Assembly (NCBI RefSeq): GCF_002868845.1
Contig: NZ_PKUB01000044.1
Location: 32,041 to 96,040 of the forward strand
Reading direction: 5' to 3'
Length of the DNA: 64,000 bases
DNA from: Desulfuromonas sp.
GTDB taxonomy: Bacteria > Desulfobacterota > Desulfuromonadia > Desulfuromonadales > BM501
Shown piece after piece: positions 34,200-55,966 of this stretch. The notes beneath the pieces were generated by a model. The model saw only the letters and a list, made by a program, of their open reading frames with translations, had not been told where the DNA came from and ran no database searches. The translations under genes were made by a program, and so were the position numbers. How positions within the stretch are numbered: the stretch's first letter is position 1; each line of letters begins with the position of its first letter.

Positions 34200-35588
34200 T
34201 TACCCCTCCTCGGCGAGGCCGTACTTCTCCAGCTTGTAGCGCAGGGTGCCCCGCGGGACGTTGAGAAGCCGGGCCGTCTTGGCCACGTTGCCGCCGGTGA
34301 TCTCCAGGGCCTTTGAGACGAGTTCCTTCTCGATCTGCCCGACCATGTCCTCCAGCAGAATCCCCTCGGGGGGAATGTCGAAGGAGAACGGGTATTCCTT
34401 GGCCGGCTCCTCCCCCCAGATCTCCCGGGGCAGAAAGGCGGGCTTGATGAGTTCGCTGTCGTGCATGATGCAGATCCGTTCGACCACGTTGCGCAACTCC
34501 CGGACGTTGCCGGGCCAGTGGTAGCGCATGAGCAGGTCGAGAGCCTCGCGGGAGACGTCCCGGACCCGCTTGCGAAACTCCTTGCCGAAATGTTTGAGGA
34601 AAAAGTCGAGCAACTGGGGAATGTCCTCCCGCCGCTCCCGCAAGGGGGGGATATGGATAGGGAAAACATTGAGGCGATAGTAAAGGTCTTCGCGAAAGGC
34701 CTTTTCGTCGATCGCCTGCTTCAGGTCGCGGTTGGTGGCGGCGACGACGCGCACGTCGATGTCGATGGTACGCGTGCCCCCCAGGCGCCGGATCTTGCGG
34801 TCCTCGAGGACCCGGAGCAGCTTCACCTGCAGGGCGAGGTCCATCTCCCCGATCTCGTCCAGAAAGATGGTGCCGCCGTCGGCCTCCTCGAACAGGCCGA
34901 TCTTGCGGGACTTCGCATCGGTGAAGGCGCCCCTCTCGTGGCCGAAGAGTTCGGTCTCGAGCAGATTGAAGGGAAGCGAGCCGCAGTTGATCTCGACGAA
35001 GGGGCGCTCCTTGCGGGGCGAGAGGCTGTGAACGGCCCGGGCCACCAACTCCTTGCCGGTGCCGCTCTCGCCGGTGACAAGGACCGTCGCGGTCTCGTGC
35101 TTGGCCACTTCGCGGATCTGGCGGTAGATCTGGAGCAACTGAGGGCTGGCCCCGACCATGTCCGCGGCCCCCTGGGGGGCCTTGTCCTTGCCTTCGCGTC
35201 GCAGCTGGCGAACCTCCCTCCGGAGGCTCTGGGTTTCGAGGGCCAGTTTGACGATAAGGCGGATGGCGTCGGCTTTGAAAGGCTTCTTGATGTAGTCGTA
35301 GGCTCCGAGCTTGAGGGCCTCGACGGCGCTCTCCACGGTGCCGTAGCCGGTGATGATGATGACCAGAACCCCGGGGTCGAGTTCCTTGAGGGCTCTCAGC
35401 ACGTCGAGGCCGCTGGCCGCGCCGAGGTTGAGGTCGAGCAGAACCAGGTCCACCTCTTCCTCGCTGACCCAGCGGACGGCCTCGTCCCCGCTTTCGGTGG
35501 AAAAAGGCCGATACCCGTCCTCGGCCAGGATCCGCTCCAGGTTTTCGCGGATGAAGGCCTCGTCGTCAACGATCAGGATTTTTTCCAT
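34200..35588 (-). CDS. Sigma54-dependent response regulator (NtrC family: REC, AAA+, Fis HTH)
   Basis: MEKILIVDDE, Walker A GESGTGKE, GAFTDA, and the C-terminal HTH NVAKTARLLNVPRGTLRYKL. Confidence 0.9.
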   Translation of the reverse strand: MEKILIVDDEAFIRENLERILAEDGYRPFSTESGDEAVRWVSEEEVDLVLLDLNLGAASGLDVLRALKELDPGVLVIIITGYGTVESAVEALKLGAYDYIKKPFKADAIRLIVKLALETQSLRREVRQLRREGKDKAPQGAADMVGASPQLLQIYRQIREVAKHETATVLVTGESGTGKELVARAVHSLSPRKERPFVEINCGSLPFNLLETELFGHERGAFTDAKSRKIGLFEEADGGTIFLDEIGEMDLALQVKLLRVLEDRKIRRLGGTRTIDIDVRVVAATNRDLKQAIDEKAFREDLYYRLNVFPIHIPPLRERREDIPQLLDFFLKHFGKEFRKRVRDVSREALDLLMRYHWPGNVRELRNVVERICIMHDSELIKPAFLPREIWGEEPAKEYPFSFDIPPEGILLEDMVGQIEKELVSKALEITGGNVAKTARLLNVPRGTLRYKLEKYGLAEEG

Positions 35589-35795
35589 GAACTCTCTCCA
35601 GGGGCAGGACAGGGAGGGCATTCGGCTTCAAAAAGAAATATGGTTATATATTATGCCTTGCCGGGACTCGGGACAAGTCCAAAACGGTGAATTTTGGCCA
35701 TACTCCAACTATCAAGGCCCAAAACTAAGCTCCCAGGAGGAACAGGTGGCGGAAAAAGGCCGAAACAGCCGGAAAGAAGTGGCCCTGCCCTCTCC

Positions 35796-37430
35796 CTAGG
35801 GGGAGACCGCCCCGAGGGGAACCCGGCAAGGGCGATTCTCAAGAAAATAAGCCAGGTCGGCTTTCAGCAGGTCGAGCGGCGGCCCTGCCACACCCGATTC
35901 TCCGGCGATGGAAATGGAGCGCTCCTGCCACTCCGCGGCCTCATCGCACCGGCCGGATTCGGCGAGAGCCATGGCGACGGTACAGGCGTGCCGGTACTCG
36001 GACCGGGACTGGAACGCGCTTTTCGCCAGATCCGTGGCCCGCGCCCCGTCGCGCAGGCTCGGCTCAGGGGAAGCGGCCAGGTGGCGGGCAAGGGCATGCT
36101 TGACGACGCCGTTGTTCGGCGACCGGGAATGGGCTTCCTCCAGGACCTTCACCGCGTCCCCGTGCTGCCCGGCCCTTGAGCACAACTTGCTCATTTCGAG
36201 CCACCCCGAAGTCTGGCTCGGCTCGAGCCTCACCGAAACCTTGTAGCGCTCAAAGGCCTCGGCTAACCGGCCGCTGTCCCTCAGGGTGTCGGCCAGAACC
36301 AGCTGCACTTCGGCGTCTTCCGGGGTCTTCTCGACAACGAGGCGCAGGTGGTCAAGGGCTCTCTCGTGCTCGCCCAAATGGGCAAGAAGGGTTCCGAGGT
36401 TGTAGTGCGCCGTTTCGCTCTCCGGCGCGAGCCGGACCGCCTCCTGCAGCTGAGCGACGGCTTCCCGGTACTTCCGCTCCTTGACCAGGGCGCTGGCCAG
36501 ATTGATCCGGGCCCCGTGGCGACCGGGATCCGCGTCGACCGCCTTTTGAAACTCGGCGGCCGCCTCGGCATAGCGCTCCGCCCCATAGGCGCGCTGGCCG
36601 ACCAGCAGGTGAATCTGGTAGCCGGTTACGAGCTCGTCAAGCTGTCTTTTCAGGGGGTCCGGGGGCTGGATACCGACGATCCCCTTGAGGGCGAGGTGAG
36701 CGCGGGCCTTCTCGTACTCCCCCAGCCCCCGGTAGGCCATGGCCAGGGGATAATGGAGCTTGTTGACCGAGGGCCCTTTGGAAAGAGCGGTTTCCAGAAA
36801 TTCGATGGCTTCCCGGTAGCGTTTTTGCTCGAGCGCCACTTCCCCCAGTCTGGCCAGAACGGCCGGCCCCTCCGGATTCAGCGCAAAAGCCTCCTCGAAA
36901 GCCTTCCTCGCCTCGGCAAGCCGCCCGAGACTGCGATGGCATTCTCCCATGCGAATCAGGAGGAGATAGGAATATTCGCTGCCGACCAGTTCCTCCTGGA
37001 AAAGCCGGAGCGCTTCGTCGTAGCGGCCGATCGACTGGAGAAGATAGCCCAGATTGTACCTCCACCCGAACAGCTCAGGGTCCAGAATCCCCGCATTGCG
37101 GTAGCAGGACTCCGCCGCCCCGTTCATCTCGTAAGCGTGGTAAAGCCGGCCGAGCTCCAGGTAAGCGCGGCCATATTGTCCGCGCCCGGCAAGCATCGCG
37201 TCGAAGCTTTTCCGGAGCATCTCCCGCGCCTCGCCGACCTGGTCGCGAACCGCCTTTTCGAGCGGTTCCAGATCGGGGACGGGGACCGGCACCAGGCCCA
37301 TTTCGCCCCTCACCTTCCGGGCGATTTCAGCGCCACCGTCCTCCTGGGCACGGGCCGTGAAAACCGGCGGCACGAGGCAGAAGGCGCACGGGATCAGCAA
37401 ACAAGAGATAAGTCGGCAATACCTGTTCAT
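35796..37430 (-). CDS. Exported TPR-repeat protein
   Basis: Signal peptide ISCLLIPCAFCLVPPVFTARA. Many TPR-like A/Y/L repeats. The start overlaps the upstream stop in an ATGA overlap. Confidence 0.8.
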   Translation of the reverse strand: MNRYCRLISCLLIPCAFCLVPPVFTARAQEDGGAEIARKVRGEMGLVPVPVPDLEPLEKAVRDQVGEAREMLRKSFDAMLAGRGQYGRAYLELGRLYHAYEMNGAAESCYRNAGILDPELFGWRYNLGYLLQSIGRYDEALRLFQEELVGSEYSYLLLIRMGECHRSLGRLAEARKAFEEAFALNPEGPAVLARLGEVALEQKRYREAIEFLETALSKGPSVNKLHYPLAMAYRGLGEYEKARAHLALKGIVGIQPPDPLKRQLDELVTGYQIHLLVGQRAYGAERYAEAAAEFQKAVDADPGRHGARINLASALVKERKYREAVAQLQEAVRLAPESETAHYNLGTLLAHLGEHERALDHLRLVVEKTPEDAEVQLVLADTLRDSGRLAEAFERYKVSVRLEPSQTSGWLEMSKLCSRAGQHGDAVKVLEEAHSRSPNNGVVKHALARHLAASPEPSLRDGARATDLAKSAFQSRSEYRHACTVAMALAESGRCDEAAEWQERSISIAGESGVAGPPLDLLKADLAYFLENRPCRVPLGAVSP

Positions 37431-55660: not shown

Positions 55661-55897
55661 TCAGAGGGGGCGCCGGGAAGGGCGGAAACACTGCCGGCAG
55701 TCGACCGCCAGGGGGAGCAGGCGTCGGTGCTTGTCCAGAGCCTCGTCGAGGGACGCCCCATCGTTGATGATGACATCTTCGGTGGCGAAAAAGGTCTTGG
55801 CCACGTGGGAGCCATCGGGGCGGGAGAAGACCAGGATCTCATAGTCCTCCCCATCGAGGGAGAGATTGCTTTGGTGAACCAGGGTTTCAGATTCCAT
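55661..55897 (-). CDS. Small hypothetical protein (78 aa) preceding the kinase
   Basis: The ORF is strongly GC3-biased and sits directly downstream of a sigma54 promoter. No clear Shine-Dalgarno was found. Confidence 0.45.
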   Translation of the reverse strand: MESETLVHQSNLSLDGEDYEILVFSRPDGSHVAKTFFATEDVIINDGASLDEALDKHRRLLPLAVDCRQCFRPSRRPL

Positions 55898-55950
55898 GGC
55901 GAGCCTGCCGAGAATAGGGGCAAATCAAGTTGCCTGTTCGTCGATCTAGC

Positions 55951-55966
55951 AGCAAATTCCGCGCCA
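55951..55966 (-). promoter_or_regulatory. Sigma54 promoter TGGCGC-N5-TTGCT
   Basis: The reverse complement of agcaaattccgcgcca is TGGCGCggaatTTGCT, with GG-N10-GC spacing. It lies 54 nt upstream of the ATG at 55897 and just downstream of the ispB terminator. Confidence 0.5.

Follow-up and report, generated by a model that had tools for sequence, protein, structure and literature searches.

A nine-gene cluster of exported haem, propeller and binding proteins in an uncultured Desulfuromonas is probably a further clade I relative of hydrazine synthase

What kind of system is encoded by nine consecutive genes for exported haem, beta-propeller, binding and FG-GAP/TPR proteins in an uncultured Desulfuromonas? 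The genes lie on contig NZ_PKUB01000044.1 of assembly GCF_002868845.1, in a stretch of 64,000 nucleotides (positions 32,041 to 96,040) that is referred to here as the window. The original prediction, made from the sequence of the window, described them as a dedicated extracytoplasmic redox or sensing machine and could not match the combination to any characterised system. Our analysis indicates that the nine genes are, with a probability of about 0.7, a further example of the clade I cluster of hydrazine synthase (HZS) homologues, HZS being the central enzyme of anaerobic ammonium oxidation (anammox). It holds true that no biochemically characterised system matches the combination, but the same architecture was published as clade I in December 2025 (PMC12758564). 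The cluster type is already published, and the family is functionally uncharacterised. The genes, numbered G1 to G9 in the order in which they are read, are the following:

G1, 50881-52788, minus strand, HZS-alpha homologue with two haem motifs; probable start at Met12 (52755)
G2, 49235-50884, minus strand, CRTAC1-like gene with an in-frame TAG at 49787-49789
G3, 46369-49215, minus strand, decahaem fusion
G4, 45130-46362 (or 46302), minus strand, Reg_prop-type beta-propeller
G5, 43805-45133, minus strand, LivK/LivJ-type (Peripla_BP_6) binding protein
G6, 42558-43808, minus strand, second, more divergent Peripla_BP_6 protein
G7, 39202-42561, minus strand, 1119-aa lipoprotein-like protein with TPR, FG-GAP and ASPIC domains; accessory module
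G8, 37427-39205, minus strand, second CRTAC1-like FG-GAP/ASPIC protein; accessory module
G9, 35796-37430, minus strand, exported TPR protein; accessory module

The true Pfam match of G1 is PF18582 (HZS_alpha, 3e-26). The reference structure for comparison was PDB 5C2V, the anammox hydrazine synthase alpha-beta-gamma complex of Kuenenia stuttgartiensis (Dietl et al. 2015). Against its alpha chain (5C2V_A), G1 scored 1.5e-36 as a single sequence and 1.7e-100 as a family profile built from 24 members, the profile alignment spanning chain residues 28-771 of 782. G1 is homologous to HZS-alpha over its full length: a beta-propeller comes first, haem alpha-I (CIGCH, residues 495-499) closes the HZS_alpha middle domain, and haem alpha-II (CAACH, residues 545-549) belongs to the C-terminal part. 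The motif RGCIGCHE[DN]xEL is near-universal across G1 homologues. The alignment to 5C2V_A breaks right after the His of the alpha-I CxxCH motif and restarts about 75 chain residues further on, so the segment bearing alpha-Tyr591 is missing; the G1 family is about 55 residues shorter than HZS-alpha after this motif, and alpha-Cys303 falls in an alignment gap. Neither the Zn site of HZS (His587 and Cys303) nor the proximal Tyr591 ligand of alpha-I was found in G1. Because the Tyr591 segment is deleted, alpha-I would presumably be an ordinary His-ligated and reducible haem, behaving unlike its counterpart in HZS, which is Tyr-ligated and cannot be reduced even at -610 mV (PMC12607021).

Haem alpha-II of HZS is bis-His ligated. 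The position of its distal His772 is unmatched in G1, where a GHHG lies 2-3 residues off, and most relatives have MPP instead. In the closest relatives from Acidobacteriota (loci L004, L008-L010, L019 and L023) the alpha-like proteins end before the haem alpha-II domain. A separate observation concerns a Fidelibacterota copy (L022:6276-8291), in which FIGFPE replaces CIGCHE at haem alpha-I.

The remaining two subunits of HZS find their counterparts in G3. The N-terminal part of this protein (residues ~35-340) is made up of two cytochrome c554-like tetrahaem modules; an HZS-beta-like seven-bladed propeller (~360-700) and an HZS-gamma/CCP-like dihaem domain (~720-948) follow. Its propeller matches 5C2V_B at 5.9e-37 as a single sequence and at 1.2e-55 as a profile (chain residues 10-348 of 352), and its dihaem domain matches 5C2V_C at 3.9e-17 and 1.4e-24, respectively. 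The N-terminus matches cytochrome c554 (1BVB) at 2.7e-9 and contains the c554 family PF13435 in two stretches (7.7e-29); its eight CxxCH motifs start at residues 45, 96, 123, 158, 217, 269, 296 and 323, and those of the gamma domain are CHSCH (740-744) and CDFCH (862-866). All ten motifs, together with Trp782 and Cys793, are invariant in 24/24 diverse G3 homologues. Cys793 aligns with gamma-Cys165, which provides the third thioether bond to haem gamma-I in HZS, and the positions of gamma-His144 and gamma-Asp168 are taken by Trp782 and by Leu797, also invariant. The gamma domain additionally matches dihaem peroxidases (1IQC at 1.6e-5, 3O5C and the MbnH-type 6E1C, as well as the NCBIfam MbnH model), and PF03150 is present only in the precomputed domains of some G3 homologues. 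The eight N-terminal haems give weak matches to the MtrC/MtrF domain and to DmsE/GSU2203 decahaem models. Both tandem modules match the family of cytochrome c554 from Nitrosomonas europaea (1BVB/1FT5); in contrast to that protein, they are duplicated and covalently fused to an enzyme, and the NCBIfam Cyt554 score is 61 bits against a cut-off of 400. In nitrifiers, c554 carries electrons from a hydroxylamine-converting multihaem enzyme. Taken together, G1 and G3 reproduce all three HZS subunits, with beta and gamma fused and eight haems added.

This arrangement is that of a published family. Hagglund et al. 2025 (Genome Biol Evol evaf244; PMC12758564) described four clades of co-located alpha and beta-gamma HZS homologues. 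In clade I, an alpha-like gene lies upstream, a CRTAC1/FG-GAP gene stands between, and the beta-gamma fusion follows, extended by two c554 domains with eight additional haem motifs; two genes for ABC substrate-binding proteins lie downstream. Its members include Syntrophobacter fumaroxidans, Paludibaculum fermentans, Aquisphaera giovannonii and Thermogutta terrifontis, and its proteins were judged unable to make hydrazine, no function being proposed (PMC12758564). The window agrees with clade I in the order G1-G2-G3, with the CRTAC1 gene in between, in the eight N-terminal haems in two c554 domains and in the two downstream Peripla_BP_6 genes, G5 and G6, which are set off from G3 by G4. The residue pattern also agrees, as regards the alpha-II site, Trp782 at gamma-His144, Cys793 at gamma-Cys165 and the loss of Tyr591/Ser590. 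The likeness extends over the whole cluster in S. fumaroxidans, where one contig repeats the order of all nine genes, each protein being 50-71% identical to its window counterpart; for the accessory genes, the identities are 58% (G7), 67% (G8) and 53% (G9), with G8 and G9 in the same positions. The window copy differs from other clade I members in coming from an uncultured organism, its sole near-identical sequence being a JGI metagenome contig; in having a Cache kinase and an NtrC-type regulator at its flanks, a pair that other members lack; and in a stop codon within G2. A further difference lies at haem alpha-II, for which the window has CxxCH and relatives often have CX4CH, and the window G1 is without the 'MPP' segment (a possible Met ligand) that is common in most relatives.

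Since all three subunits have homologues here, co-located, the question arises whether the cluster might be a genuine HZS and its host an unrecognised anammox-type bacterium that makes hydrazine from nitric oxide (NO) and ammonium. Full-length alpha homology, a seven-bladed beta propeller and a dihaem gamma domain that keeps the third haem-binding Cys of gamma-I are all present, and hzsABC-like genes of a comparable kind, from Phycisphaerae, had earlier been put forward as potential new markers of anammox (PMC10732223). The reading is nevertheless hardly credible. The NCBIfam HZS models (NF052339-NF052342) score far below their curated cut-offs, with 165 of 800 bits for alpha, 169 of 560 for beta, 75 of 625 for gamma and 195 of 1250 for the beta-gamma fusion. 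With the alpha-Tyr591 region deleted and no alpha-Cys303, the alpha-I Tyr/Zn site is missing; in the pocket of gamma, His144 is replaced by Trp and Asp168 by Leu. No octahaem gene of the HAO/HDH type occurs in the 64-kb window, where the only other open reading frame (ORF) with multiple CxxCH motifs encodes a 106-aa cytochrome c3. Hosts of the cluster include non-anammox organisms such as S. fumaroxidans, and the same conclusion was reached in PMC12758564, where the Mg-binding Glu of the beta gating loop was also reported as not conserved in clade I. Judged by its residues, the cluster is not a hydrazine synthase, those needed to make hydrazine being absent.

The cluster and anammox HZS share the three-module architecture, the fold family of all three subunits, two alpha and two gamma haems, the third thioether Cys at gamma-I and co-location of the genes. 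They differ in gene order, which is reversed in the window (alpha first), in the fusion of beta with gamma and its eight extra haems, and in the missing Tyr ligand/Zn site of alpha-I with the ~55 residues lost after its motif. We know of no counterpart of G2, G4, G5 or G6 in the hzs operon (kuste2859-2861). The Phycisphaerae genes mentioned above, from metagenome-assembled genomes of UBA1845, were read by Dalcin Martins et al. 2023 (FEMS Microbiol Lett fnad049; PMC10732223) either as possible novel anammox markers or as a broader HZS-like family with other substrates. They resemble the window in having an hzsA-like gene upstream of a fused hzsBC-like gene, and their bit scores to Kuenenia HZS, 89-163 (PMC10732223), are in a similar range to those of the window, 129, 130 and 65. 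Phycisphaerae loci are among the relatives of the window cluster.

How widely is the cluster distributed, and which of its genes travel together? The G3 family comprises more than 1500 database clusters with E <1e-10; among the 120 matches listed, identity is 54-67% (the copy on metagenome contig L001 excepted), most are full-length and many phyla are represented. Scanning a single genome for each species gave 418 genomes with relatives, the best 80 of which were used for locus comparison. These 80 come from Acidobacteriota (Aminicenantes, Thermoanaerobaculia), Omnitrophota, Gemmatimonadota, Fidelibacterota, Calditrichia, Bacteroidota, Verrucomicrobiota, Planctomycetota (Phycisphaerae, Pirellulales), Desulfobacteraceae and Anaerolineales. 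For synteny, the window proteins were searched against the translated loci, and each denominator counts the loci whose flanking DNA was long enough. In about 80 genomes from more than ten phyla, G1-G2-G3-G4-G5-G6 follow one another on one strand in a near-invariant order: G1 is present in 60/61 loci, G2 in 70 of 72, G5 in 62 of 64 and G6 in at least 46 of 56, and G4 directly follows G3 in at least 60 of 70. The accessory genes are looser. A G7-like gene lies within 10 kb in 12/34 fully flanked loci, and a G7-like or extra CRTAC1-like gene does so in 16/34, with varying position and strand. The notion of a dedicated nine-gene unit therefore stands as regards a conserved extracytoplasmic haem/propeller system, but the unit that is conserved across phyla consists of six genes, with G7-G9 as a frequent accessory.

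As to the anatomy of the cluster, most of what had been described was borne out. The ORF map contains nine consecutive minus-strand genes from 52788 down to 35796, and all six predicted four-nucleotide start/stop overlaps were found, as ATGA at 50881-84, 45130-33, 39202-05 and 37427-30 and as GTGA at 43805-08 and 42558-61. The other two gaps had been put at 19 nt or less; they measure 19 nt (G2-G3) and 6 nt (G3-G4), but the latter becomes 66 nt with an alternative ATG of G4, which is the start in the sister contig's gene call. The haem load of twelve CxxCH motifs was confirmed by count, with two in G1 and ten in G3. Export of all nine products agrees with an N-terminal hydrophobic stretch in 9/9 of them by a hydropathy heuristic only, and the same heuristic marks lipobox-like motifs in G1, G5, G7 and G9. 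The cluster had been said to be without ABC or TonB components or cytoplasmic enzymes, and Pfam finds none among the nine products. The proposed domain labels were also recovered by Pfam for G2 and G8 (FG-GAP/ASPIC), G5 and G6 (Peripla_BP_6), G7 (TPR/FG-GAP/ASPIC) and G9 (TPR), whereas the PD40 label of G1 is faint; the Reg_prop label of G4 is weak in Pfam and was confirmed by the fold. The neighbouring genes have no relation to the cluster and serve housekeeping or transport: polyprenyl synthase, an HTH protein, DUF2126 and transglutaminase on one side, and a DASS symporter and a Na/Pi cotransporter on the other.

Among the proteins without haem, G2 is a CRTAC1-like FG-GAP propeller with ASPIC/UnbV that matches PDB 9ETN_A (CRTAC1) at 8e-21. 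The amber codon noted in this gene is real and in frame. The JGI metagenome contig L001, of 13.7 kb and 99.8% identical to window positions 40746-54445, has TCG (Ser) at this codon and an intact G2 of 549 aa. There are 28 single-base differences between window and contig, including 20 transversions and 16 non-synonymous changes, and the window G3 differs from the L001 copy by four residues, for which reason a look-up of its exact sequence gave no match. At the conserved columns Pro153 and Pro857 of G3 and Pro219 and Arg304 of G1, contig L001 carries the family consensus and the window an odd residue. Because L001 has TCG and the window holds such odd residues, the TAG is best read as a lesion or error, the window copy apparently carrying errors or very recent lesions of which this codon is one. 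Recoding of the TAG, by pyrrolysine or read-through, was considered and rejected in view of the TCG codon and intact gene of L001 and of the transversion-rich differences.

G4, a stand-alone periplasmic propeller without an informative family match, is among the most conserved proteins of the cluster. It has more than 3500 homologues, and those listed, S. fumaroxidans included, share 63-80% identity. Its AlphaFold 2 model is a single propeller (pLDDT 88, pTM 0.86); in the PDB it comes closest to the BT4663/BT3049 propellers of Bacteroides hybrid two-component sensors, with TM ~0.65. A library search for G4 by 50% clusters was unusable for counts, as its orthologues collapse into few clusters and the rest are generic Reg_prop proteins. 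In two Pirellulales loci (L036:6888-9467 and L055:12788-15361), ORFs of about 860 aa appear to fuse a Reg_prop propeller to the first binding protein; if real, this fusion would support a physical association of G4 with G5.

Both binding proteins belong to Peripla_BP_6. G5 (Pfam 9.5e-44; PDB 4GNR 4e-32) bears a lipobox-like LLGC, and G6 gives 5.5e-31 in Pfam and 1.4e-13 with PDB 3HUT; no permease or ATPase of a cognate transporter lies nearby. A conserved all-beta region makes up the last 430 residues of G7 (AlphaFold 2 pLDDT 85). Searched against the PDB, its model gave no match over the whole domain but only jelly-roll/CBM-like ones at sub-domain level, and for this reason the G7 C-terminus offers no functional clue.

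How is the cluster controlled? The following elements surround it:

53090-55579, minus strand, sensor histidine kinase with dCache-TM-HAMP-PAS-HisKA-HATPase domains (Pfam)
34200-35621, minus strand, NtrC-type response regulator with REC-sigma54 AAA+ (GAFTDA)-HTH_8 domains (Pfam)
55951-55966, minus strand, sigma54-type -24/-12 promoter-like site, TGGCGCGGAATTTGCT, matching 10/12 consensus positions (consensus match only)
55661-55897, minus strand, 78-aa ORF between the sigma54-like site and the kinase (candidate only)

The kinase had been placed behind a sigma54 promoter immediately upstream. It is indeed upstream, its dCache match (41.6 bits) being just under the Pfam cut-off of 45 bits, and a promoter-like site was found, but the 78-aa ORF, for which neither Pfam nor NCBIfam gave a match, lies between the two. 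Only five sigma54-like sites as good as 10/12 occur on both strands of the window. As the plain sigma54 pattern count over the window is not enriched, the site is supported by its position only: it lies in the intergenic region, just past the hairpin terminator of the polyprenyl synthase gene upstream. In the 301-nt spacer between the kinase and G1, no sigma54 site and no minus-strand sigma70-like promoter were recognised. Binding sites for the activator were not found either. Downstream, the proposed sigma54 activator has its REC, sigma54 AAA+ and HTH_8 domains and lies 174 nt after G9. The gap between them contains a hairpin resembling a weak terminator (35758-35770), and beyond the regulator gene stands a strong terminator that is bidirectional (34106-34133). 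Expression of the cluster in this organism is probably controlled by the flanking Cache kinase and NtrC-type sigma54 regulator. The bracketing by these two genes was not found to be conserved, a kinase homologue standing near the cluster in 1/34 and a regulator homologue in 2/34 fully flanked related loci. Since it is absent from nearly all related loci, the pair is a lineage-specific, local control layer and not a part of the machine.

What, then, might the conserved proteins do? By homology to 5C2V, G1 and G3 may assemble in the periplasm as an alpha-beta-gamma complex, a putative oxidoreductase whose two catalytic haems, gamma-I and alpha-I, would be joined by an internal tunnel. The eight-haem c554 wire, haem gamma-II and the CCP/MauG-type Trp782 would carry electrons to or from gamma-I, a route likewise modelled on that structure. 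Their strict co-inheritance suggests that G2, G4, G5 and G6 could be further subunits or partners in substrate delivery or scaffolding, with G7-G9 as an optional outer module. Because HZS-gamma reduces NO, alpha-I should be redox-active and ten haems suit the transfer of 5-6 electrons, a channelled two-step, multi-electron conversion of a small N-O compound is tentatively proposed as the likeliest chemistry, for example of NO to hydroxylamine at gamma-I and on to ammonium at alpha-I, or the reverse; its odds are well below even. A wider proposal is rather doubtful at present, namely that the six-gene core is the enzyme of an undescribed nitrogen-cycle reaction in non-anammox anaerobes of more than ten phyla, representing the ancestral chemistry from which HZS evolved. 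The candidate reactions would be periplasmic reduction of NO/hydroxylamine to ammonium via a channelled intermediate, or a condensation of hydroxylamine with an amine or amino acid delivered by the binding proteins, forming an N-N or N-C bond.

Other functions have to be weighed against the proposed N-O chemistry. The C-terminal domain of G3 belongs to the dihaem CCP fold family, with two CxxCH motifs and an inter-haem Trp, and it matches dihaem peroxidases and the NCBIfam MbnH model. The system might accordingly work as a CCP/MauG/MbnH-like oxidant, in which a peroxide-driven or high-valent dihaem centre oxidises or cross-links a bound partner protein or a small molecule. The electron-hopping Trp between the haems of CCP/MauG is invariant here (Trp782) and is a His in HZS (PMC12758564), and the co-inherited partner proteins without enzymatic domains would suit such a role. 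Against this stand the matches to the HZS subunits, which are by far better than those to CCP/MauG, the weaker ones including that of the dihaem domain itself compared with HZS-gamma. The third thioether Cys is retained, an HZS feature and not a CCP one, and the dihaem domain shares its chain with a propeller and an eight-haem wire. Neither this wire nor a second catalytic haem protein, such as the alpha-like partner of G3, is known as a feature of MauG/MbnH systems. Many hosts are, moreover, strict anaerobes, in which peroxide chemistry is less expected. Such an oxidant seems unlikely.

The haems could instead serve extracytoplasmic electron transfer to or from metals, humics or other insoluble or extracellular partners, with the decahaem protein as a wire and the propeller and TPR proteins as surface scaffolds. 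The weak MtrC/MtrF and DmsE/GSU2203 matches of the eight N-terminal haems, several lipoprotein-like products and a class III tetrahaem cytochrome c3 gene 2.6 kb upstream point in this direction, but the matches to cytochromes of extracellular electron transfer are far under cut-off, the cluster contains no porin, outer-membrane conduit or quinol dehydrogenase, and the two enzyme-like domains joined to the decahaem part are better conserved than the wire itself, which makes a mere conduit very unlikely. Still less probable, and indeed remote, is a periplasmic sensing machine in which propellers and LivK-type proteins report to the Cache kinase/sigma54 regulator. The sensing half of the original prediction found little support: none of the nine proteins bears a signalling or output domain, kinase and regulator are missing from nearly all related loci (1-2/34), and twelve haems, with two active-site haems of enzyme type, would be superfluous for sensing. 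What speaks for it is that the fold of G4 recurs in the sensor propellers of hybrid two-component systems from Bacteroides, that LivK-type proteins serve as sensor partners in some systems, and that kinase and regulator do flank the cluster in this genome.

Several points weigh against the assignment to clade I and the enzymatic role sketched above. G2 is interrupted in the window sequence, haem alpha-II would be dispensable in some lineages, as the closest Acidobacteriota relatives do without its domain, and control by the flanking regulators is unproven, since no sigma54 site precedes G1. Complex formation, tunnel and substrate are all inferred, and the roles of G2, G4, G5 and G6 are drawn from co-inheritance only. 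The analogy with NO and hydroxylamine chemistry may fail because the catalytic pockets differ from those of HZS, and the CCP/MauG-type Trp equally indicates peroxide-driven chemistry. Literature searches, S. fumaroxidans included, returned no biochemical or expression data for any member.

The surroundings of the cluster offer further observations. At 58616-58936 on the plus strand, 2.6 kb upstream of the promoter-like site, lies the gene for the 106-aa exported class III cytochrome c3 (four CxxCH, PF02085 at 6.8e-11), which may be an electron partner in the periplasm and is in keeping with a Desulfobacterota-like host. In 28 related loci (e.g., L002:4851-5984), the HZS-alpha-like gene is immediately preceded by a RidA/FkbO (chorismatase)-like gene for a cytoplasmic protein. 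The window has a homologue, adjoining a carbon-nitrogen hydrolase gene (26570-27718 and 27788-28792, both on the minus strand), 6.5 kb past the regulator. This gene was considered as a tenth component, for which the case is weak: at that distance and with ~30% identity, the window copy is probably a paralogue. A low-GC island at ~16600-22400 (0.40-0.45 against ~0.62) appears to have been horizontally acquired and contains a GSCFA-family gene besides four or five ORFs of ~200 aa, paralogous to one another and carrying a PKTAGTS-type motif, which look sulfotransferase-like by eye. A c-di-GMP-I-GGC riboswitch aptamer lies at 1013-1095 on the minus strand (65.3 bits against a gathering threshold of 59), and a HypF-type carbamoyltransferase, a hydrogenase maturation factor, is encoded at 22524-24788 on the minus strand, ~10 kb from the cluster.

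What the window copy contributes to a known cluster type is limited to a longer list of parts and a local pair of regulators. The Reg_prop propeller, the TPR proteins, the TPR/FG-GAP module and the regulators receive no mention in the text of PMC12758564; new with respect to that account are a conserved unit larger than reported, which includes the highly conserved Reg_prop propeller, and a TPR/FG-GAP module that stands beside the core in about half of the loci. S. fumaroxidans, which is cultured and has the identical nine-gene arrangement, is usable for experiments, and the local Cache kinase/sigma54 pair provides a handle on the inducing signal. HZS was long held to be unique to anammox bacteria, and clade I-type clusters are the only known full-set relatives (alpha plus beta-gamma), found in at least 418 species-level genomes from many phyla, their gene order almost invariant and their sequences very highly conserved. 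Knowing the reaction of this family would reveal the chemistry that preceded hydrazine synthesis, and it might add a step to the anaerobic nitrogen cycle or to a related redox cycle.

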